In this document: one piece after another, positions 6,236-64,000 of the stretch
Numbering within the stretch: position 1 is the first letter of the stretch
How the letters are laid out: each line of letters begins with the position of its first letter
DNA from: Escherichia coli
GTDB lineage: Bacteria; Pseudomonadota; Gammaproteobacteria; Enterobacterales; Enterobacteriaceae
DNA length: 64,000 nt
Assembly (NCBI RefSeq): GCF_013315695.1
Contig: NZ_CP054353.1
Strand: one strand, 5' to 3'
The notes under the pieces: model-generated
What the model was told of the DNA's origin: nothing
The model's database searches: none
The model's input: the letters and a program-made list of their open reading frames with translations, nothing else
Position numbers and translations under genes: made by a program

Positions 6236-7489
6236 TTATGCGTAAACCGGATAACGTGCGCAGATGTCGAGAACTTTACCTTTGATGCGCTCGATAACAG
6301 CTTCATCATTGATGCTGTCCAGCACGTCACACATCCAGCCAGCCAGTTCTTTCGCTTCGGCTTCTTTAAAGCCACGACGGGTAATCGCCGGAGTACCTAC
6401 ACGAATACCGGAAGTCACAAATGGGCTCTTCGGATCGTTCGGTACGCTGTTTTTGTTGACAGTGATGTTAGCACGGCCCAGAGCGGCGTCTGCTTCTTTA
6501 CCGGTCAGGTTTTTATCAACCAGATCAACCAGGAACAGGTGGTTATCAGTACCGCCGGAAACCACTTTGTAGCCGCGTTCGAGGAACACTTCTACCATCG
6601 CTTTGGCGTTTTTCGCGACCTGCTGCTGGTAAGTTTTGAACTCAGGTTCCATCGCTTCTTTCAGAGCAACCGCTTTACCGGCGATTACGTGCATCAACGG
6701 ACCGCCCTGACCACCAGGGAAAACGGCAGAGTTCAGTTTTTTGTACAGCTCTTCGCTACCACCTTTCGCCAGGATCAGGCCGCCGCGCGGACCCGCCAGG
6801 GTTTTGTGAGTGGTGGTAGTAACAACGTGAGCATGAGGAACCGGGTTCGGGTAGACGCCAGCAGCAACCAGGCCCGCAACGTGCGCCATATCAACGAACA
6901 GGTAAGCACCGATGCTGTCAGCGATTTCACGCATTTTCGCCCAGTCCACCACGCCGGAATATGCAGAGAAGCCACCGATAATCATTTTCGGTTTGTGTTC
7001 TTTGGCTTGTTTTTCCAGATCGGCGTAGTCGATATGACCGGTAGCATCGATACCGTAAGGAACGATGTTGTACAGTTTACCGGAGAAGTTAACCGGAGAA
7101 CCGTGAGTCAGGTGACCGCCATGCGCCAGATTCATACCCAGAACGGTATCGCCTGGTTCCAGCAACGCAGTGTACACCGCAAAGTTAGCCTGGGAGCCGG
7201 AGTGCGGCTGGACGTTAGCGTAGTCAGCGCCGAACAGTTCTTTCGCACGATCGATCGCCAGTTGTTCAACGATATCAACATACTCGCAACCGCCGTAGTA
7301 GCGTTTGCCCGGATAACCTTCAGCATATTTGTTGGTCAGCTGAGAACCCTGAGCCTGCATTACGCGCGGGCTGGTGTAGTTTTCGGAGGCGATCAGTTCG
7401 ATGTGCTCTTCCTGACGTACTTTTTCCTGCTCCATAGCCTGCCACAGTTCGGCATCATAATCGGCAATGTTCATTTCACGCTTTAACAT
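6236..7489 (-). CDS. glyA: serine hydroxymethyltransferase
   Basis: 417 aa from [22 protein letters not shown]; PLP-binding motifs; unmistakable GlyA sequence. Confidence 0.97.
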
Positions 7490-7817
7490 CCGCATCTCCT
7501 GACTCAGCTAACAATAAAATTTTTGGCCTTTATAGGCGGTCCTGTTGGACAACGGCGAACAGTATAACCGAATCATTGTGCGATAACAGGTCTTGACAAA
7601 GGAATTTACGCAAACGATTACCTTCAGGCTACGCAAGGCTTTGGAGAATAAAGAGCTTGCAACCGGAAACGGATTTCTTTTCAGGTTTGTGATGCAAATT
7701 TTTCACTTCATCACATTCTTTCTGAAAAACACCAAAGAACCATTTACATTGCAGGGCTATTTTTTATAAGATGCATTTTAGATACATCAATTAAGATGCA
7801 AAAAAAAGGAAGACCAT

Positions 7818-9008
7818 ATGCTTGACGCTCAAACCATCGCTACAGTAAAAGCCACCATCCCTTTACTGGTGGAAACGGGACCAAAGTTAACCGCCCATTT
7901 CTACGACCGTATGTTTACTCATAACCCAGAACTCAAAGAAATTTTTAACATGAGTAACCAGCGCAATGGCGATCAACGTGAAGCCCTGTTTAACGCTATT
8001 GCCGCCTACGCCAGCAATATTGAAAACCTGCCTGCGCTGCTGCCAGCGGTAGAAAAAATCGCGCAGAAGCACACCAGTTTCCAGATCAAACCGGAACAGT
8101 ACAACATCGTCGGTGAACACCTGTTGGCAACGCTGGACGAAATGTTCAGCCCGGGGCAGGAAGTGCTGGACGCGTGGGGTAAAGCCTATGGCGTCCTGGC
8201 TAATGTATTTATCAATCGCGAGGCGGAAATCTATAACGAAAACGCCAGCAAAGCCGGTGGTTGGGAAGGTACTCGCGATTTCCGCATTGTGGCTAAAACA
8301 CCGCGCAGCGCGCTTATCACCAGCTTCGAACTGGAGCCGGTCGACGGTGGCGCAGTGGCAGAATACCGTCCGGGGCAATATCTCGGCGTCTGGCTGAAGC
8401 CGGAAGGTTTCCCGCATCAGGAAATTCGTCAGTACTCTTTGACTCGCAAACCGGATGGCAAAGGCTATCGTATTGCGGTGAAACGCGAAGATGGCGGGCA
8501 GGTATCCAACTGGCTGCACAATCACGCCAATGTTGGCGATGTCGTGAAACTGGTTGCTCCAGCAGGTGATTTCTTTATGGCTGTCGCAGATGACACACCA
8601 GTGACGTTAATCTCTGCCGGTGTCGGTCAAACGCCAATGCTGGCAATGCTCGACACGCTGGCAAAAGCTGGCCACACAGCACAAGTGAACTGGTTCCATG
8701 CGGCAGAAAATGGCGATGTTCACGCCTTTGCCGATGAAGTTAAGGAACTGGGGCAAGCACTGCCGCGCTTTACCGCGCACACCTGGTATCGTCAGCCAAG
8801 CGAAGCCGATCGCGCTAAAGGTCAGTTTGATAGCGAAGGTCTGATGGATTTGAGCAAACTGGAAGGTGCGTTCAGCGATCCGACAATGCAGTTCTATCTC
8901 TGCGGCCCGGTTGGCTTCATGCAGTTTGCCGCGAAACAGTTAGTGGATCTGGGCGTGAAGCAGGAAAACATTCATTACGAATGCTTTGGCCCGCATAAGG
9001 TGCTGTGA
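7818..9008 (+). CDS. hmp: flavohemoglobin (nitric oxide dioxygenase)
   Basis: 396 aa with N-terminal globin domain and C-terminal FAD/NAD reductase domain; divergent from glyA as in E. coli. Confidence 0.97.
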
Positions 9009-9052: not shown

Positions 9053-9427
<375 letters not shown>

Positions 9428-53529: not shown

Positions 53530-56103
53530 TTACTGGACGGCGACAATCCGGTCTTCATTAACTTCCAGGCGAATCACTTTACCCGGAACCAATTCACCAG
53601 ACAGTATTTGCTGTGCCAGCGGGTTTTCGATCTGCTGCTGAATTGCACGTTTCAGAGGACGTGCACCATAGACCGGATCGTAACCGTTCTCGCTCAGCAG
53701 TTTCAGCGCCTCGTCAGAAATGTGGATTTCATAACCACGTTCTTCCAGACGTTTATACAGACGTTTCAACTGAATCTGCGCAATCGACGCAATGTGCTGT
53801 TCACCCAGCGGATGGAAGACCACCACTTCATCGATACGGTTAATGAATTCCGGACGGAAGTTATGGCTTACCACACCGAGCACCAGCTCTTTCATGTGCG
53901 CATAATCCAGTTCACCGAAGCGTTCCTGAATCAAATCGGAACCGAGGTTAGAGGTCATAATGACAACCGTATTACGGAAGTCGACCGTTCTCCCCTGCCC
54001 GTCAGTCAGACGCCCATCATCCAATACCTGCAACAGAATGTTGAAGACATCCGGATGCGCTTTTTCCACTTCATCCAGCAGGATGACGGAATACGGACGA
54101 CGACGCACCGCTTCGGTCAGGTAGCCACCTTCTTCATAACCGACATATCCCGGAGGCGCACCAACCAGACGAGACACCGAGTGTTTCTCCATAAACTCGG
54201 ACATATCGATACGGACCATCGCCTCGTCGCTATCAAACATAAAGTTCGCCAGCGCCTTACAAAGCTCAGTTTTCCCCACACCCGTTGGGCCGAGGAACAG
54301 GAATGAACCAATCGGGCGATTTGGATCCGCCAGCCCCGCACGGCTACGACGAATAGCGTTAGATACCGCATCAACCGCTTCGTTCTGACCAATAACGCGA
54401 TGGTGCAGTTCTTGCTCCATACGCAGCAGTTTTTCGCGCTCGCTTTCCATCATGCGAGAAACCGGAATCCCCGTCCAACGCGCCAGCACTTCAGCAATTT
54501 CGGCATCGGTCACTTTATTACGCAACAGACGCATAGTTTTGCCTTCGAGCTGCGTTGCGGCTTCCAGTTGCTTTTCCAGTTCCGGGATTTTGCCGTATTG
54601 CAGTTCAGACATCCGCGCCAGGTCACCCACACGGCGAGCCTGTTCAATAGCGATTTTCGCCTGTTCCAGTTCCGCTTTAATGGTCTGCGTACCAGAAAGC
54701 GATGCTTTCTCTGCTTTCCACTCTTCTTCTAACTCGGAGTACTGACGTTCTTTGTCGCTCAGTTCTTCGTTGAGCATATCCAGGCGTTTTTTACTGGCTT
54801 CATCAGACTCTTTCATTAACGCCTGTTGTTCCAGTTTGAGCTGGATGATACGGCGATCGAGTCGGTCGAGTTCTTCTGGTTTTGAGTCAATCTGCATACG
54901 AATGCTGGATGCTGCTTCATCGATCAGGTCGATGGCTTTATCTGGCAGCTGACGGTCAGCAATGTAGCGATGAGACAACGTCGCCGCTGCAACAATTGCC
55001 GGGTCAGTAATTTGCACATGGTGGTGCAATTCGTAACGTTCTTTCAGGCCACGCAGAATCGCAATGGTATCTTCAACAGAAGGCTCGGCAACAAACACTT
55101 TTTGGAAACGACGTTCCAGCGCAGCATCTTTTTCGATGTACTGGCGATATTCGTCAAGCGTCGTGGCACCTACGCAGTGCAATTCACCACGCGCCAGCGC
55201 CGGTTTCAGCATGTTTCCGGCGTCCATTGCGCCATCGGCTTTACCCGCGCCGACCATGGTATGTAATTCGTCGATAAACAGGATGACGTTGCCTTCCTGT
55301 TTGGCAAGATCGTTAAGTACGCCTTTTAAACGTTCTTCAAACTCACCGCGATATTTCGCCCCAGCCACCAGCGCGCCCATATCCAGCGCCAGTACGCGGC
55401 GGCCTTTCAACCCTTCGGGCACTTCGCCGTTGATAATACGCTGCGCCAGACCTTCAACGATGGCAGTCTTACCGACGCCGGGTTCACCAATCAGTACCGG
55501 GTTATTTTTAGTACGACGTTGCAGCACCTGAATGGTACGGCGAATTTCTTCATCACGACCAATCACCGGATCGAGTTTACCCTGTTCGGCTCGTTCGGTA
55601 AGGTCGATGGTATATTTTTTCAAAGCCTGACGTTGGTCTTCAGCACCTTGATCGTTCACGCTTTCACCTCCACGCATTTGTTCAATCGCTTGAGTAATGT
55701 TGGCGGTGGTCGCCCCTGCTGCTTTCAGGATGTCGGCCAGCGTGCCGCGAGACTCAAGTGCCGCCAGAACGAACAGTTCTGACGAGATAAAGTTATCACC
55801 ACGTTTTTGCGCCAGCTTGTCGCAAAGATTAAGAACGCGCACCAGATCCTGTGATGGCTGGACATCACCACCAGTACCTTCAACCTGCGGTAAACGATTT
55901 AATGCCTGATTGATATCTGTGCGCAACTGGCCAGCATTTATGCCAGCGGATGTTAATAAAGGACTAACCGAACCCCCTTCCTGATTCAGCAGGGCGCTCA
56001 TTAAATGAAGTGGTTCGATGAATTGGTTGTCGTGCCCGAGTGCAAGTGATTGGGCATCGGCAAGAGCAAGCTGGAATTTATTAGTAAGACGATCCAGACG
56101 CAT
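53530..56103 (-). CDS. clpB: ClpB disaggregase chaperone (AAA+)
   Basis: 857 aa from [18 protein letters not shown]; two AAA+ modules with Walker A/B and a coiled-coil middle domain. Confidence 0.97.
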
Positions 56104-56141
56104 AACTCCTCCCATAACGGATCAAAGTTGCTACTGGAGAT

Positions 56142-56171
56142 TAAATGAGGTCATCCCTCAATTATTCAAGG
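56142..56171 (-). promoter_or_regulatory. sigma32 heat-shock promoter of clpB
   Basis: Minus-strand CTTGAA-N14-CCTCATTTA, matching the sigma32 consensus (CTTGAA / CCCCATnT) upstream of clpB. Confidence 0.55.
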
Positions 56172-56232
56172 TTATTGACCAGATTAATGTGAAAAGAAAA
56201 TCACGCGTACCGGATCGTCTTGATTCTTTAGG

Positions 56233-56964
56233 TTATATCAGCCAAATGAAACTTGCCATACGACCGGTGGTCTTGTCGCGACGATAAGAGAAGAAAGTCT
56301 CATTTTCCGTATATGTACAACGGCCGCCGCCGAAAATTTGTTCAACGCCAACGCTCGCCAGACGCTGTCGGGCAAGGAGATAAATATCCGCCAGATACTT
56401 ATCACCATGCTGAATGAAAGCTGTACTCGCTTTGGCGTCTACTGCCATAAACGCCTCGCGAACCTCCGCCCCCACTTCAAACGCGCGTGGACCAATTGCC
56501 GGCCCTAACCAGGCGAGAATATTTTCCGGATTATCAGCAAAACAAGAAACCGTCTCTTCCAGCACGCCAGAACACAGCCCGCGCCAGCCTGCATGAGCGG
56601 CGGCAACTTCCGTTCCCGTACGATTGCAAAACAGCACAGGGAGGCAGTCAGCCGTCATCACTGCGCAAACCGTGCCGGGCGTATTGCTATAAGAGGCATC
56701 AGCTCGTTTTGAGGCATAAGGTTCGCCAGTAAGCTTAAGCACATCTTTGCCGTGTACCTGCTCAAGCCAGACCGGTTTTGAAGGCAAATTGCCCGCAGCA
56801 AAAAGTCGCTTGCGATTCTCTTCAACGTGATCCGGGTTATCGCCACAATGGGCACCGAGGTTGAGCGAGTCATACGGGGGCAAGCTCACGCCGCCGATAC
56901 GAGTAGAGCTACAAGCCGCAACACCTTTTGGCAGCGGCCACTGCGGGACAATCAGCTTACTCAT
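56233..56964 (-). CDS. yfiH: polyphenol oxidase-like / purine nucleoside phosphorylase-like protein (DUF152)
   Basis: 243-aa ORF; conserved partner of rluD. Also known as pgeF. Confidence 0.9.
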   Translation of the reverse strand: MSKLIVPQWPLPKGVAACSSTRIGGVSLPPYDSLNLGAHCGDNPDHVEENRKRLFAAGNLPSKPVWLEQVHGKDVLKLTGEPYASKRADASYSNTPGTVCAVMTADCLPVLFCNRTGTEVAAAHAGWRGLCSGVLEETVSCFADNPENILAWLGPAIGPRAFEVGAEVREAFMAVDAKASTAFIQHGDKYLADIYLLARQRLASVGVEQIFGGGRCTYTENETFFSYRRDKTTGRMASFIWLI

Positions 56965-57941
56965 AACCAGTCCACTTCATCTTTATGCTCTTCGAAATCG
57001 GCGCGCATCACCTCAATCAGCTCCACCATATCTTGTGGAATAGGCGCATGCCATTCCATTTCGATACCGGAGATCGGGTGATAAAGACGCAGCATGGTTG
57101 CATGAAGCGCCTGGCGGTCAAATTTACGCAGCGTGGAGATAAACGCTTCCGAAGCACCTTTTGGCGGACGCGGACGGCCACCATAAACCGGATCGCCCAC
57201 CAGCGGATGAGTGATATGGGCCATATGCACGCGGATCTGGTGCGTACGTCCAGTTTCCAGACGCAACCGCAGACGCGTGTGCACACGGAAGTGTTCCATG
57301 ATGCGATAGTGAGTCACCGCTGGTTTGCCCATCGGATGCACCGCCATGTGAGTACGTTTGGTCGGGTGGCGACTGATTGGCTCATCCACCGTACCACCAG
57401 CGGTCATATGACCAATTGCGACAGCTTCATACTCACGAGTAATTTCACGCCGTTGCAAAGATTCGACTAAACGCGTCTGAGCCGGAACGGTTTTTGCCAC
57501 AACCATCAGGCCAGTGGTGTCTTTATCCAGACGATGGACGATGCCCGCACGCGGTACATCGGCAATGGGCGGATAATAATGAAGCAATGCATTCAGTACC
57601 GTGCCATCCGGGTTACCCGCGCCAGGATGTACCACCAGGTCGCGTGGTTTATTAATGACGATGATATCTTCATCTTCATAGACGATATCCAGCGGGATAT
57701 CCTGCGGTTCAAAACGCGCTTCTTCTTCAATCTCAGCGTTGATGGCCACCTGCTCGCCACCCAATACTTTTTCTTTCGGCTTATCACAAACTTTGCCGTT
57801 AACCAGCACGCGCTGGTCGAGGATCCATTCTTTTATCCGCGAACGTGAATAATCCGGGAACATTTCGGCCAAAGCCTGATCTAAGCGTTGACCGAGTTGG
57901 TTTTCGGACACCGTTGCAGTGAGCTGTACTCGTTGTGCCAT
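56961..57941 (-). CDS. rluD: 23S rRNA pseudouridine synthase D
   Basis: 326 aa with S4 domain and RluA-family catalytic motif (HRLDKDTTGL); stop overlaps the yfiH start. Confidence 0.95.
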   Translation of the reverse strand: MAQRVQLTATVSENQLGQRLDQALAEMFPDYSRSRIKEWILDQRVLVNGKVCDKPKEKVLGGEQVAINAEIEEEARFEPQDIPLDIVYEDEDIIVINKPRDLVVHPGAGNPDGTVLNALLHYYPPIADVPRAGIVHRLDKDTTGLMVVAKTVPAQTRLVESLQRREITREYEAVAIGHMTAGGTVDEPISRHPTKRTHMAVHPMGKPAVTHYRIMEHFRVHTRLRLRLETGRTHQIRVHMAHITHPLVGDPVYGGRPRPPKGASEAFISTLRKFDRQALHATMLRLYHPISGIEMEWHAPIPQDMVELIEVMRADFEEHKDEVDWL

Positions 57942-58075
57942 ATATACTGCTTCTTCGTTTATCGTTGGGGTTTTACGGCTTTGCCGTTTAATATAGTGTG
58001 CTATTGTAGCTGGTCTTAACCGGGAGCAGGAACAGAGAATCTCCCGTATTACATTTTGAGGAAAGTCAAAACGTC

Positions 58076-58813
58076 ATGACGCGCATGAAATATCTGGTGG
58101 CAGCCGCCACACTAAGCCTGTTTTTGGCGGGTTGCTCGGGGTCAAAGGAAGAAGTACCTGATAATCCGCCAAATGAAATTTACGCGACTGCACAACAAAA
58201 GCTGCAGGACGGTAACTGGAGACAGGCAATAACGCAACTGGAAGCGTTAGATAATCGCTATCCGTTTGGTCCGTATTCGCAGCAGGTGCAGCTGGATCTC
58301 ATCTACGCCTACTATAAAAACGCCGATTTGCCGTTAGCACAGGCTGCCATCGATCGTTTTATTCGCCTTAACCCGACCCATCCGAATATCGATTATGTCA
58401 TGTACATGCGTGGCCTGACCAATATGGCGCTGGATGACAGTGCGCTGCAAGGGTTCTTTGGCGTTGACCGTAGCGATCGCGATCCTCAACATGCACGAGC
58501 TGCGTTTAGTGACTTTTCCAAACTGGTGCGCGGCTATCCGAACAGTCAGTACACCACCGATGCCACCAAACGTCTGGTATTCCTGAAAGATCGTCTGGCG
58601 AAATATGAATACTCCGTTGCCGAGTACTATACAGAACGTGGTGCATGGGTTGCCGTCGTTAACCGCGTAGAAGGCATGTTGCGCGACTACCCGGATACCC
58701 AGGCTACGCGTGATGCGCTGCCGCTGATGGAAAATGCATACCGTCAGATGCAGATGAATGCGCAAGCTGAAAAAGTAGCGAAAATCATCGCTGCAAACAG
58801 CAGCAATACATAA
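58076..58813 (+). CDS. bamD: outer membrane protein assembly factor BamD
   Basis: 245-aa lipoprotein (LFLAGCSG) with TPR-like repeats; divergent from rluD. Confidence 0.95.
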
Positions 58814-58850
58814 CAAAAACCTGAAACACAAAACGGCAGCCCTTGAGCTG

Positions 58851-60276
58851 TAATGCCGATCAGTTAAGGATCAGTTGACCGATCCAGTGGCTGTGTAAGA
58901 ATCCGGAAACGCTCACTTGTTTCCGGATTTTTTTATGCACATTGGACAGGCTCTTGATCTGGTATCCCGTTACGATTCTCTGCGTAACCCACTGACTTCT
59001 CTGGGGGATTACCTCGACCCCGAACTCATCTCTCGTTGCCTTGCCGAATCAGGTACTGTAACGCTACGCAAGCGCCGTCTTCCCCTCGAAATGATGGTCT
59101 GGTGTATTGTTGGCATGGCGCTTGAGCGTAAAGAACCTCTTCACCAGATTGTGAATCGCCTGGACATCATGCTGCCGGGCAATCGCCCCTTCGTTGCCCC
59201 CAGTGCCGTTATTCAGGCCCGCCAGCGCCTGGGAAGTGAGGCTGTCCGCCGCGTGTTCACGAAAACAGCGCAGCTCTGGCATAACGCCACGCCGCATCCG
59301 CACTGGTGCGGCCTGACCCTGCTGGCCATCGATGGTGTGTTCTGGCGCACACCGGATACACCAGAGAACGATGCAGCCTTCCCCCGCCAGACACATGCCG
59401 GGAACCCGGCGCTCTACCCGCAGGTCAAAATGGTCTGCCAGATGGAACTGACCAGCCATCTGCTGACGGCTGCAGCCTTCGGCACGATGAAGAACAGCGA
59501 AAATGAGCTTGCTGAGCAACTTATAGAACAAACCGGCGATAACACTCTGACGTTAATGGATAAAGGTTATTACTCACTGGGACTGTTAAATGCCTGGAGC
59601 CTGGCGGGAGAACACCGCCACTGGATGATACCTCTCAGAAAGGGAGCGCAATATGAAGAGATCAGAAAACTGGGTAAAGGCGATCATCTGGTGAAGCTGA
59701 AAACCAGCCCGCAGGCACGAAAAAAGTGGCCGGGACTGGGAAATGAAGTGACAGCCCGCCTGCTGACCGTGACGCGCAAAGGAAAAGTCTGCCATCTGCT
59801 GACGTCGATGACGGACGCCATGCGCTTCCCCGGAGGAGAAATGGCGGATCTGTACAGTCATCGCTGGGAAATCGAACTGGGATACAGGGAGATAAAACAG
59901 ACGATGCAACTGAGCAGGCTGACGCTGAGAAGTAAAAAACCGGAGCTTGTGGAGCAAGAGCTGTGGGGTGTCTTACTGGCTTATAATCTGGTGAGATATC
60001 AGATGATTAAAATGGCGGAACATCTGAAAGGTTACTGGCCGAATCAACTGAGTTTCTCAGAATCATGCGGAATGGTGATGAGAATGCTGATGACATTGCA
60101 GGGCGCTTCACCGGGACGTATACCGGAGCTGATGCGCGATCTTGCAAGTATGGGACAACTTGTGAAATTACCGACAAGAAGGGAAAGGGCCTTCCCGAGA
60201 GTGGTAAAGGAGAGGCCCTGGAAATACCCCACAGCCCCGAAAAAGAGCCAGTCAGTTGCTTAACTGACTGGCATTA
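58851..60276 (+). mobile_element. insertion sequence IS4 (complete, 1426 bp)
   Basis: 18-bp terminal inverted repeats TAATGCCGATCAGTTAAG (58851..58868) and CTTAACTGACTGGCATTA (60259..60276), 16/18 complementary; length 1426 bp; encodes the IS4 transposase. The 11-13 bp flanks do not match (CCCTTGAGCTG vs CAGCCTTCGGG), so there is no target-site duplication. Confidence 0.95.
58938..60263 (+). CDS. insG: IS4 transposase (DDE family)
   Basis: Translation [35 protein letters not shown]...[17 protein letters not shown] matches the IS4 transposase as I recall it; the track ORF starts 7 codons earlier (58917). Confidence 0.9.
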
Positions 60277-60308
60277 CAGCCTTCGGGCTGGCATTTTTTA
60301 TGGTTGAG

Positions 60309-61181
60309 TTACCAGCGACCGGACGCGCCGCCACCGCCAGAAGAACCGCCCCCGCCGCTAAATCCGCCGCCACTTGAGCCGCCACCGGAACCGCTGTTGT
60401 CTGAATGATAACTTCTACCAGATGCTTTTTTCTGAAGTACACATAAACAGGTAAAGACCATAATGGTGGTGAAAGTAAAAAAGAAGAAAAATACAGCAAT
60501 GGAAAAAGTTTTATCGGAGAACAGGAATAAATCTAAAAGATAGATTGCTGAAATACAGACACTGCTTTTACATGCGCGACAAAAATTACTGCCTTGATGA
60601 AAAAACCAGAAAGGGAAGAACATCACTGCAAATACCCAAAAAATAGCAAAGTAATAATGATCACTGGAAGACGCTGATTCAATTTCTGAAGGATTAGCCG
60701 GATATTGGTGTTGTGAAGTGAGTTGGTTATTCAAAGCGTTTATAGCTAGCTCTAATCCCTGAGCTAATTTTTGTTGTTTAAATGCGGGTATCATGTTGCT
60801 ACGGATGATATCTCCAGCCAGAGCATCGGTTACCTTTTCTTCCAGCCCATAACCTACCTGGATGCGGACAGTGCGATCCGACCAGGCAACAATGATCAGT
60901 ATCCCATCATTGCGTTTGGCATCTCCTAAACGCCAATTGTTAAAAACCCTTGTAGCATATTGTTCAATTGTCTCGTCTTTGGTTGTGGGAATAATTAATA
61001 CAGCAATTTGTACTTGGGTATTATTGAAAATAGATTCTAACTTCCGCGTCAGTTCTTTCTTTTCTTGTGAGTTTAAGCTACTCGTAAGATCCGTAACTTG
61101 TTGCTGTAATTGTGGGACAATAGTTGGTTGGGCTGCAACAAAGGAACACACGAATGTGAATATTAGTATGAAATAGCGCAT
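60309..61181 (-). CDS. ygcG: TPM-domain membrane protein
   Basis: 290 aa from [19 protein letters not shown] (signal peptide), TPM domain, TM segment and a Gly/Ser-rich low-complexity C-terminal tail. Confidence 0.85.
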
Positions 61182-61474
61182 TATAAATGTCCCATTAAAG
61201 CTGGATAAATAAATTGACGGCGGCATCGGTAATTTGAGATTCGTTATAATTAAAAACGAACACAGAAAAAATAAGTATAATTTCGGTGAATGTTTTTGAC
61301 ATGATTAAATCCCTTTACTTTATTTATTTCTGACATAATACGTTACTTCCTTTTATTATTAACGATCTGTTTCTCATTTTTCTTTAAACCTGCCTGTAAC
61401 AGAATGTTAATAAGACATGATTGTTGTGGCAGGATCTGCAATAATTAACAATTATCCACTTCACAGAGAATGCT

Positions 61475-62146
61475 ATGCAGTACCCGATTAACGAGATGTT
61501 CCAGACCCTGCAAGGTGAGGGTTACTTTACCGGCGTCCCCGCCATTTTTATTCGTTTACAGGGATGTCCGGTCGGCTGTGCCTGGTGCGACACCAAACAC
61601 ACCTGGGAAAAGCTTGAGGATCGGGAAGTCTCCCTTTTCAGCATTCTGGCGAAGACCAAAGAGAGTGATAAGTGGGGGGCGGCGAGCAGTGAAGATTTGC
61701 TGGCTGTCATTGGTCGTCAGGGATACACCGCGCGGCATGTGGTGATTACGGGTGGTGAGCCTTGCATTCATGATTTGCTGCCACTGACTGACCTGCTCGA
61801 AAAGAACGGTTTTAGCTGCCAGATAGAAACCAGCGGCACTCACGAAGTACGTTGCACACCGAATACCTGGGTTACTGTTTCGCCAAAACTGAACATGCGC
61901 GGCGGCTATGAAGTGTTGTCACAGGCACTGGAGCGCGCTAACGAAATTAAACATCCTGTTGGGCGTGTTCGTGACATCGAAGCGCTGGATGAGCTATTAG
62001 CAACGCTGACCGATGATAAACCACGAGTCATTGCACTGCAGCCGATTAGCCAAAAGGATGATGCCACTCGTTTGTGCATTGAAACCTGCATTGCGCGTAA
62101 CTGGCGTTTGTCGATGCAAACACATAAATATCTAAATATTGCCTGA
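61475..62146 (+). CDS. queE: 7-carboxy-7-deazaguanine synthase (radical SAM)
   Basis: 223 aa with radical-SAM cysteine motif (CPVGCAWCDTKHTW); divergent from ygcG. Confidence 0.95.
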   Translation: MQYPINEMFQTLQGEGYFTGVPAIFIRLQGCPVGCAWCDTKHTWEKLEDREVSLFSILAKTKESDKWGAASSEDLLAVIGRQGYTARHVVITGGEPCIHDLLPLTDLLEKNGFSCQIETSGTHEVRCTPNTWVTVSPKLNMRGGYEVLSQALERANEIKHPVGRVRDIEALDELLATLTDDKPRVIALQPISQKDDATRLCIETCIARNWRLSMQTHKYLNIA

Positions 62147-62485
62147 TTAAACATTTATAAGCGTTATAAATGGGTGGAACCTGTAAAGACTTCTACTCAT
62201 TTATATTGTTTGTCGCCTCTGAAAACTCATCCATCTTGCCCATCCTGAACTAATCATTATCATTCTCTACAAATTCTGTGGCGTTAATTTTTCGCTGGAG
62301 TGAAAATTATTGCGGTAAAGTTTGGTAGATTTTAGTTTGTATAGAGTTATTTTAAATATTTACCTTTTTAATCAATGGATTAAGTGCTCTTTAACATAAT
62401 GGATGTGTTGTTTGTGTGATACTGTAAAGTTGGTAGATTGTGACTGGCTTAAAAAATCATTAATTAATAATAGGTTATGTTTAGA
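62147..62485 (+). promoter_or_regulatory. CRISPR leader (AT-rich) of the main array
   Basis: AT-rich non-coding stretch directly upstream of the first repeat, in the orientation where repeats read GTGTTCCCCGCGCCAGCGGGGATAAACCG; the crRNA promoter is expected inside it. Confidence 0.5.
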
Positions 62486-63307
62486 GTGTTCCCCGCGCCA
62501 GCGGGGATAAACCAAATACAGGACCAATATTTTGATATATATAATCGTGTTCCCCGCGCCAGCGGGGATAAACCGGTGATTCTGGCAATACTGGCACTTC
62601 CGTTTTGGTGTTCCCCGCGCCAGCGGGGATAAACCGGGCGGTTAACTGGTCCTGTGCGGATATGCGCTGTGTTCCCCGCGCCAGCGGGGATAAACCGATG
62701 TGGAAAGGCGAGCTGAGGGTGGCCTACGCGTGTTCCCCGCGCCAGCGGGGATAAACCGGCTGAGGAAATTGCTAAACCCTCGCAGGATCCGTGTTCCCCG
62801 CGCCAGCGGGGATAAACCGTTGCCGGTACAGCTCCAGCATTAATCCCCACCGTGTTCCCCGCGCCAGCGGGGATAAACCGTTGCGACGTGGTGCGCGCTC
62901 GAGCACAACGTTGTGTTCCCCGCGCCAGCGGGGATAAACCGATGTAAACCCCTCGCGCATCGAGTCAAATGTCGTGTTCCCCGCGCCAGCGGGGATAAAC
63001 CGCCACCTCAGCCTGCGCGCCCGCTGAATATTCCGTGTTCCCCGCTCCAGCGGGGATAAACCGGGACGCGTTCCATCAGGGCGGGTCCAGGGAATGTGTT
63101 CCCCGCGCCAGCGGGGATAAACCGCAGGCGGCGCAGTGGCGCATGAATCCGTTCGCGTGTTCCCCGCGCCAGCGGGGATAAACCGGAGTTTGTGAATTTA
63201 ACAGAATTCCGCGCCCGGTGTTCCCCGCGCCAGCGGGGATAAACCAGCCAATTGCCATATATGCCATCGCCAGCAGCCGTGTTCCCCGCGCCAGCGGGGA
63301 TAAACCA
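62486..63307 (+). CRISPR. CRISPR array with type I-E repeats: 14 repeats, 13 spacers of 32 bp
   Basis: 29-bp repeat GTGTTCCCCGCGCCAGCGGGGATAAACCG at a perfect 61-bp period starting 62486, 62547, 62608 ... 63279. Variants: repeat 10 has CGCTCCAG; repeats 1, 13 and 14 end in A. Spacer 1 is AATACAGGACCAATATTTTGATATATATAATC, spacer 2 is GTGATTCTGGCAATACTGGCACTTCCGTTTTG. No cas genes in the window. Confidence 0.95.
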
Positions 63308-63775
63308 CCATATAACCCGTTATCTCTTTCTCAAGTTTTTATATTAGCTGTACTTGTAATAAGCAACATATCCACATAACACCTCATGTTCAAAATAGTT
63401 CCCCATGCCAGATAAGTTCACAATTATCGATACAAAAAATCAAATTTAATCAAAGTGTTATTTGTATAATCCTTAAACCGTTAAGAAATTTTAATATATT
63501 ATTTTTTTAATATTAATTAATGCCTGTTAATTTTTTCTTTAGAATAACAGTGTATTTTTTAAGCTTGTTATTCATTGATTAAGTAATAAATCTGGAAGTT
63601 TGTCTTTGTTTTGAGGCTAATGAGTGGTTTTACATAACCGCCTCTATACGCTGTTGATGAATAGTTCTTATGAATAAAGATATCCAGTTCATACTTTAAG
63701 TGAAAATTGATAAAGTGCGATTCGTATTGTCTTTTATTCTAAAGACATCGAGTGTAGTTAATATTCCTTGTAAAA

Positions 63776-63897
63776 ACAGGGATAAACCGAACTAGTTAAA
63801 GTTTTTATTATGTTCCCTGCATCAGCGGGGATAAACCGGACTTGTTATCATTTTTTAAGTTGTCGAACTTATGTTCCCCGCGTCAGCGGGGATAACC
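63776..63897 (+). CRISPR. vestigial second CRISPR array (two degenerate repeats plus one truncated repeat)
   Basis: Truncated repeat (..CAGGGATAAACCG, 63776..63789), a 20-bp spacer, ATGTTCCCTGCATCAGCGGGGATAAACCG (63810..63838), a 32-bp spacer, then ATGTTCCCCGCGTCAGCGGGGATAACC (63871..63897); preceded by its own AT-rich leader-like region (63308..63775). Confidence 0.6.
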
Positions 63898-64000
63898 ATT
63901 CAGGTATGTTCAGGCCGGGCAGTTTCCCGCCCGGCCTTCCTCACTTACGCATTCGACCAGCTCTGGATCGAATCCGCATTCCCCAATTCCCCATGCATCA

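Follow-up and report, generated by a model that had tools for sequence, protein, structure and literature searches.

The classical target of IS4, as described in the IS4 literature of the 1980s, is a pseudo-palindrome of the form AAA-N20-TTT, a consensus that reportedly also appears in the review by Mahillon and Chandler, and insertion of the element usually generates a target duplication of 11 to 13 bp (ISfinder). The IS4 family was founded on the K-12 copy, insG. Transposition in this family, as exemplified by IS10 and IS50, is of the cut-and-paste and not the replicative type, and the inversion of chromosomal segments bounded by IS copies, through homologous recombination between those copies, is a textbook phenomenon that is especially familiar from Shigella and IS-rich E. 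coli. In Shigella sonnei, a 2026 resource paper described inversions extending from raiA, characterized as "IS4 family transposase flanked," and ascribed them to IS-mediated homologous recombination (PMC12795559). Here, we describe a 64-kb stretch of E. coli DNA, referred to throughout as the window, in which a complete IS4 joins bamD to ygcG. We consider it highly probable (approximately 0.88) that this IS4 forms one end of an inversion of about 170 to 190 kb that arose when two older IS4 copies, each sited in a transcription terminator, recombined.

The IS4 joint between bamD and ygcG

The element occupies positions 58851 to 60276 (plus strand) and is the sole IS4 copy within the window. It is 1,426 bp long, ends in imperfect terminal inverted repeats of 18 bp (TAATGCCGATCAGTTAAG at 58851 to 58868 and CTTAACTGACTGGCATTA at 60259 to 60276, both on the plus strand; compared as TAATGCCGATCAGTTAAG and TAATGCCAGTCAGTTAAG, they agree at 16 of 18 positions), and contains a single uninterrupted DDE transposase open reading frame (58935 to 60263, plus strand) of 442 amino acids from an ATG or 448 amino acids from a TTG at 58917. 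The window transposase scored 304.5 bits against the model NF033592, "IS4 family transposase" (cut-off, 115), and the Pfam domains Nterm_IS4 and DDE_Tnp_1 were identified on the transposase gene of two sequence-identical IS4 copies from related genomes (loci L011 and L014). Over its length the element is 100% identical to the IS4 of plasmid NZ_KX356458.1 and 99.4 to 100% identical to annotated IS4 copies of E. coli chromosomes and plasmids. In length, inverted repeats and transposase it conforms to IS4; a flanking target-site duplication is absent, as the two flanks differ, and this points to recombination after insertion and does not argue against the identity of the element. Two terminator-like hairpins are situated within its ends, one just upstream of the transposase ATG (58897 to 58937, plus strand), with a 14-bp stem followed by T7 and a folding energy of −19.8 kcal/mol (z = −6.5), and one overlapping the right inverted repeat (60247 to 60272, minus strand), with an 11-bp stem followed by TCTTTTTC.

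The last gene before the joint is an intact bamD (58076 to 58813, plus strand), recognized from the list of open reading frames; its positional counterparts in TW10690, K-12 and MSB1_4I are annotated as bamD. Between this gene and the element lies the 5′ half of the bamD intrinsic terminator, AAAACGG followed by CAGCCCTTGAGCTG (58830 to 58850, plus strand), which matches the K-12 site; its final 14 bp (58837 to 58850) correspond to one copy of the target duplication of an IS4 insertion between bamD and raiA. To the right, CAGCCTTCGGGCTG followed by GCATTTTTT (60277 to 60299, plus strand) is half of the convergent terminator of ygcG and eno, again matching the K-12 site, and its first 14 bp (60277 to 60290) correspond to one copy of the target duplication of an IS4 insertion between eno and ygcG. 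Read across the joint, the flanks are AAAACGG CAGCCCTTGAGCTG on the left and CAGCCTTCGGGCTG GCATTTTTT on the right, with no direct repeat. The uninterrupted sites in K-12 are aaaacggCAGCCCTTGAGCTGccgttttttt for bamD, a terminator with the structure CGGCAGC-CCTTGA-GCTGCCG-T7, and, in the orientation of the window, aaaaatgcCAGCCTCCGGGCTGgcatttttt for ygcG and eno, from which the window lineage differs by one base. Insertion has a pronounced effect on the predicted folding of both: the bamD terminator falls from −17.3 kcal/mol when intact (z = −5.6) to −6.8 kcal/mol as cut in the window, no better than shuffled sequence, and the ygcG/eno terminator falls from −20.3 (z = −6.3) to −7.3 kcal/mol. 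An Rfam scan of the interval from 54 to 64 kb of the window returned the RyfD small RNA alone and no match at the joint.

The two interrupted sites resemble each other. The 14-mers abutting the element share 11 of their 14 bases, and the IS4 inverted repeat seems to run 21 nt into the flanks, producing an extended inverted repeat of 39 nt; both features arise because the half-sites come from similar palindromes. Each site follows AAA-N20-TTT with a 20-nt core (AAA-A CGGCAGCCCTTGAGCTGCCG T-TTT at bamD and AAA TGCCAGCCTTCGGGCTGGCA TTT at eno/ygcG), a consensus supported here by the sites described. A run of A residues, a palindrome and a run of T residues also characterize other IS4 sites, namely, that between bamE and yfjF in TW10690, where the duplication measures 11 bp, and the left flank of an IS4 in OZ039894.1. 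In some strains (two loci), the same 14 bp at the eno/ygcG site hold an IS4 in the opposite orientation.

Beyond the joint, an intact ygcG (60309 to 61181, minus strand), encoding a TPM-domain protein (Pfam TPM_phosphatase), has its 3′ end facing the element and constitutes the first gene of what we interpret as the inverted segment, which continues in reversed K-12 order through queE (61475 to 62146, plus strand) and a type I-E CRISPR array of 14 repeats and 13 spacers (62486 to 63307, plus strand). In K-12, bamD is followed by raiA, pheL, pheA and tyrA, and ygcG adjoins eno and pyrG; the corresponding ends of bamD and ygcG are at 2,736,883 and 2,906,583, with 169.7 kb between them. The arrangement bamD(+)-IS4-ygcG(−)-queE(+)-CRISPR in the window, against queE(−)-ygcG(+)-eno(−) in K-12, is the reversal of order and orientation that an inversion produces.

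A preliminary description of the window had anticipated much of this. Its account of an intact 1,426-bp IS4 with both 18-bp repeats and a full transposase is upheld, as are its observations that the flanks form no direct repeat and that the element cuts the bamD terminator hairpin; the two flanks prove to be exact halves of two distinct K-12 terminators. The different hairpin that it placed on the other side can now be recognized as what is left of the ygcG/eno terminator. The K-12 gene order and the distance of roughly 170 kb that it gave agree with the measured values, and the synteny breakpoint that it proposed between bamD and ygcG is real in that the flanks map to two K-12 loci. Its figure of 11 to 13 bp for the target duplication requires amendment: the duplication is 14 bp at these sites and 13 bp in one lineage.

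Parental insertions and reciprocal junctions in other genomes

Close relatives that retain the K-12 gene order carry IS4 at both sites. MSB1_4I is 99.95% identical to the window over positions 9084 to 59087 and 99.90% identical over positions 58830 to 64000, and its CRISPR array contains 13 spacers identical to those of the window. Its two insertions, bamD-CAGCCCTTGAGCTG-IS4-CAGCCCTTGAGCTG-raiA and eno-CAGCCTTCGGGCTG-IS4-CAGCCTTCGGGCTG-ygcG, each display a perfect 14-bp duplication, and a distance of 187 kb separates the two elements, which are on opposite strands. Neither copy differs from the window IS4 at any position over 1,426 bp; thus, the MSB1_4I pair offers host recombination an adequate substrate in the form of 1.4 kb of perfectly matching inverted sequence, and the same identity means that the crossover point cannot be mapped. 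GCA_964055605.1, like MSB1_4I, retains both parental insertions in inverted orientation.

The joint itself was encountered in two other genomes. GCA_964052565.1, a 5.19-Mb contig, contains the same bamD-IS4-ygcG joint with 0 mismatches to window positions 54309 to 62576, and on the same contig the order mazEFG-pyrG-eno-CAGCCTTCGGGCTG-IS4-CAGCCCTTGAGCTG-raiA-pheA, in which the duplication halves are swapped; the two IS4 copies bound 166 kb. Both junctions were located through exact-protein look-ups, initially with the YgcG of the window and then with the PheA of the lineage. The CRISPR array of this genome shares only spacers 1, 12 and 13 with that of the window. Among 5,426 complete RefSeq E. 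coli genomes, bamD adjoins ygcG across an IS4 in a single case, TW10690, which has the bamD-IS4-ygcG joint and an eno-IS4-raiA junction 236 kb apart; the stretch of its record from 1.415 to 1.465 Mb holds prophage and island DNA only, and the reciprocal junction is found in the next 50 kb. A second inverted IS4 with exchanged duplication halves was therefore present in both GCA_964052565.1 and TW10690, and the check for a reciprocal eno-IS4-raiA junction that had been proposed in the preliminary description, when run on related genomes, gave a positive result in each. The TW10690 backbone is approximately 2% divergent from the window, its IS4 allele differs by 9 single-nucleotide polymorphisms and its eno/ygcG duplication is 13 bp (CAGCCTCCGGGCT); un-inverted strains with the TW10690 IS4 allele and the 13-bp duplication also exist. 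These sequences indicate that the inversion in TW10690 was probably an independent event and that the same inversion arose at least twice.

Occupation of the two sites is not unusual. The bamD-IS4 junction was present in 335 and the IS4-raiA junction in 336 of the 5,426 complete genomes (about 6%), and the eno-IS4 and IS4-ygcG junctions were present in 83 and 74, respectively (about 1.5%); substrates for this type of recombination are thus common. Related genomes contain approximately 18 IS4 matches each, and other hybrid joints were found at the same two sites: in IAI39, an unrelated left flank is combined with the IS4-ygcG junction, and in OZ039894.1, a gene encoding a MASE1/EAL-domain protein is combined with the IS4-raiA junction.

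Proposed recombination between two IS4 copies and its alternatives

We suggest that an ancestor of the window lineage would have had simple IS4 insertions at two places, the intrinsic terminator that separates bamD from raiA and the convergent terminator that ygcG and eno share, with the copies in opposite orientations and 166 to 187 kb apart, as judged from the relatives examined. A crossover within the two identical 1,426-bp copies, brought about by host homologous recombination and presumably RecA dependent, would flip the segment between them and would leave two hybrid IS4 copies, in each of which the two parental sites are represented by one duplication half apiece. The window IS4 would be one such hybrid, with its left end derived from the bamD/raiA insertion and its right end derived from the eno/ygcG insertion, and the reciprocal junction predicted by this model would read TTTAAAAATGC CAGCCTTCGGGCTG-IS4-CAGCCCTTGAGCTG CCGTTTTTTT-raiA. 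The combination of an inverted IS4 pair, swapped duplication halves and a reversed block is characteristic of one reciprocal crossover. The genome from which the window was taken presumably possesses the reciprocal eno-IS4-raiA junction, beyond the 64 kb, and the crossover is best attributed to host recombination rather than to transposase action. Weighing somewhat against this reading are the identity of the parental copies, which hides any recombination within the element from direct view, and the different spacer set of GCA_964052565.1, which shares the joint. The preliminary description had left the choice between an inversion and a deletion: the former is borne out by the reversed ygcG block, the inverted parental copies and the reciprocal junctions in two genomes, and the latter can be ruled out, as the 3′ end of ygcG faces the element, the parental copies are inverted and the segment carries the essential genes ffh, rpsP and grpE.

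A more complicated history, in which several recombination steps among the many IS4 copies of the lineage left the window's genome without a simple reciprocal eno-IS4-raiA junction, would draw on the large number of IS4 matches per related genome and on the hybrid joints at the same two sites in IAI39 and OZ039894.1. We nevertheless regard it as improbable, since one crossover accounts for everything seen and both of the other joint-bearing genomes that were found carry the simple reciprocal junction. An assembly artefact, with the bamD and ygcG sides mis-joined across a repeated 1.4-kb element, seems marginally less credible still: a multicopy IS with parental copies that are 100% identical is the classic setting for such an error and the window itself provides sequence and no reads, but the joint occurs together with matching reciprocals in two independent chromosome-scale assemblies, and 64 kb of contiguous sequence across a multicopy IS suggests that long-read data were used.

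Inversion in one step by the transposase is very improbable. In that event, the bamD/raiA IS4 would have transposed intramolecularly into the ygcG/eno terminator and made a second copy in the process, leaving one half of the new target duplication at each junction in inverted form, a product whose sequence would be indistinguishable from that of recombination. The nearest un-inverted relatives, however, already have simple insertions at the two sites, flanked in either case by perfect duplications, and dozens to hundreds of further genomes carry simple insertions, so that an eno/ygcG insertion predating the inversion in this lineage is strongly suggested; the cut-and-paste mode of transposition of the family also counts against such a step. 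The probability that bamD and ygcG were ancestral neighbors and that IS4 simply inserted between them, with subsequent decay of the duplication, is close to negligible. The likeness of CAGCCCTTGAGCTG and CAGCCTTCGGGCTG might be taken to favor it, but this likeness follows from the shared palindromic target type, the flanks are exact halves of different K-12 terminators, and MSB1_4I exhibits a perfect and separate duplication at each site. The preliminary description had named ancestral adjacency of the two genes and a misread direct repeat as grounds on which its interpretation would fall; adjacency is confined to 1 of the 5,426 complete genomes and no matching repeat flanks the window IS4. 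Recombination between two preexisting, terminator-sited IS4 copies is therefore the reading that we prefer.

Consequences and relation to known systems

No gene is disrupted at the joint. The terminators of bamD and ygcG themselves are lost, as they also are wherever the simple insertions occur, and the hairpins internal to the ends of IS4 probably take over termination for both genes, that at 58897 to 58937 probably stopping read-through from bamD and that at 60247 to 60272, on the minus strand, probably stopping read-through from ygcG. On the K-12 map, both endpoints of the inversion presumably fall within one replichore, so that about 150 genes would be flipped relative to the direction of replication. 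In the TW10690 segment, these include rpsP-rimM-trmD-rplS, ffh and ssrA; recA, mutS and rpoS, to judge by the K-12 map, presumably also belong to the flipped block. The rrnG operon is situated just outside the inversion. A fitness cost of the inversion is possible on the basis of this gene content. The IS4 pair could conceivably constitute a recurrent and perhaps reversible flip site for a block of 166 to 236 kb in unrelated lineages, perhaps even maintained or selected as a structural polymorphism and not a neutral accident; the independent occurrence of the same inversion in two lineages, together with the differing CRISPR arrays of two inversion-bearing genomes of one lineage, allows for repeated flipping, and we hold this proposal to be doubtful.

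For structural annotation, the break in gene order after bamD relative to K-12 is to be read as a true IS4-bounded inversion, and not as gene loss or the acquisition of a new junction element. The intrinsic terminators at bamD/raiA and eno/ygcG are two IS4 hot spots, filled in about 6% and about 1.5%, respectively, of the complete E. coli genomes and able to recombine with each other, and the reversal of many highly expressed genes with respect to replication may be exploited for studying how costly head-on orientation is to natural isolates.

The window IS4 resembles insG of K-12 in its length of 1,426 bp, inverted repeats matching at 16 of 18 positions, single DDE transposase and preference for palindromic AAA-N20-TTT sites, but, being a recombinant of two copies, it has no direct repeat at its flanks. 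The simple insertions at bamD/raiA and eno/ygcG in hundreds of E. coli genomes share with the window the insertion points, the orientation and the junctions on the retained sides; in contrast to the window, each IS4 in those genomes has its own perfect duplication and the K-12 order is kept. With the IS-mediated inversions of Shigella and IS-rich E. coli, the locus has in common inverted IS copies that bound the segment and target duplications that have been exchanged. One endpoint, the bamD/raiA locus, is the same as in the S. sonnei inversions (PMC12795559), which measure approximately 20 to 45 kb and for which an IS4 between bamE and yfjF is among the contents listed; unlike those cases, inversions of the window type have the eno/ygcG IS4 as a partner and span 166 to 236 kb. 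Thus, the phenomenon is already known and no new mechanism is involved, the sole additional detail being the length of the parental target duplications, which, at 14 and 13 bp, slightly exceed the 11 to 13 bp usual for IS4.

Rearrangement partners and insertion targets of the IS4 copies

The two IS4 copies involved in the inversion, at bamD/raiA and eno/ygcG, were also found as hybrid joints with other partners in two further genomes. The IS4-ygcG side is connected in IAI39 to an unrelated left flank close to uvrD (L006, 5980-6005), and the IS4-raiA side in OZ039894.1 to a MASE1/EAL-domain gene (L026, 4707-4737). Rearrangement breakpoints fall repeatedly at these two IS4 sites. Across the loci compared, strains differ in which way IS4 lies in the same 14-bp eno/ygcG target, and the duplication is perfect for either orientation: L015 and L018 carry the element in one orientation (6906-8331 in both), in contrast to L011, L013, L016 and L017. 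This points to a symmetric hot spot hit by independent insertions or to a flip of the element in place.

A third IS4 is present within the inverted segment of TW10690, a strain of another lineage with the same inversion, where it lies between bamE and yfjF (L008, 25188-26619) and is flanked by an 11-bp duplication, GCTCATTGAGC, its target being another terminator-like palindrome. The gene list for a published IS4-flanked inversion of S. sonnei also places an IS4 between bamE and yfjF (PMC12795559).

The CRISPR array and small features near the joint

A type I-E CRISPR array of 14 repeats (GTGTTCCCCGCGCCAGCGGGGATAAACCG) and 13 spacers occupies window positions 62486-63307, with an additional degenerate repeat at 63810. 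Spacer comparison established that the array of MSB1_4I, the un-inverted near-identical strain, is identical to that of the window, and that only spacers 1, 12 and 13 are common to the window and GCA_964052565.1, an assembly that has the inversion in common with the window and is otherwise identical to it in sequence around the joint. The differences between arrays reflect either remodelling of the CRISPR locus after the inversion or more than one origin, or a reversion, of the inversion within the lineage.

The small gene yqcG adjoins ygcG on the minus strand (61195-61336). MSB1_4I and the window are 99.9% identical around this gene, and the equivalent position is annotated as frameshifted ("hypothetical protein") in MSB1_4I. 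The RyfD sRNA, which scores 125 bits against Rfam RF02768, is encoded on the minus strand at 56084-56222 between clpB and yfiH, an ordinary placement that matches K-12.

Hairpins within the IS4 ends and length of the target duplication

Just within each IS4 end is a strong terminator-like hairpin oriented inward from the flanks, at 58897-58937 on the plus strand (-19.8 kcal/mol, z = -6.5) and at 60247-60272 on the minus strand. The element inserts into terminators, and these predicted hairpins may therefore substitute for the terminators destroyed by insertion and may also shield the transposase gene against outside transcription.

In the window's lineage, the duplication at both bamD/raiA and eno/ygcG is 14 bp long (window 58837-58850 and 60277-60290); that at eno/ygcG is 13 bp in the TW10690 lineage, and the bamE/yfjF duplication is shorter still. 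IS4 usually duplicates 11 to 13 bp of its target, a range that the 14-bp duplications described here exceed.
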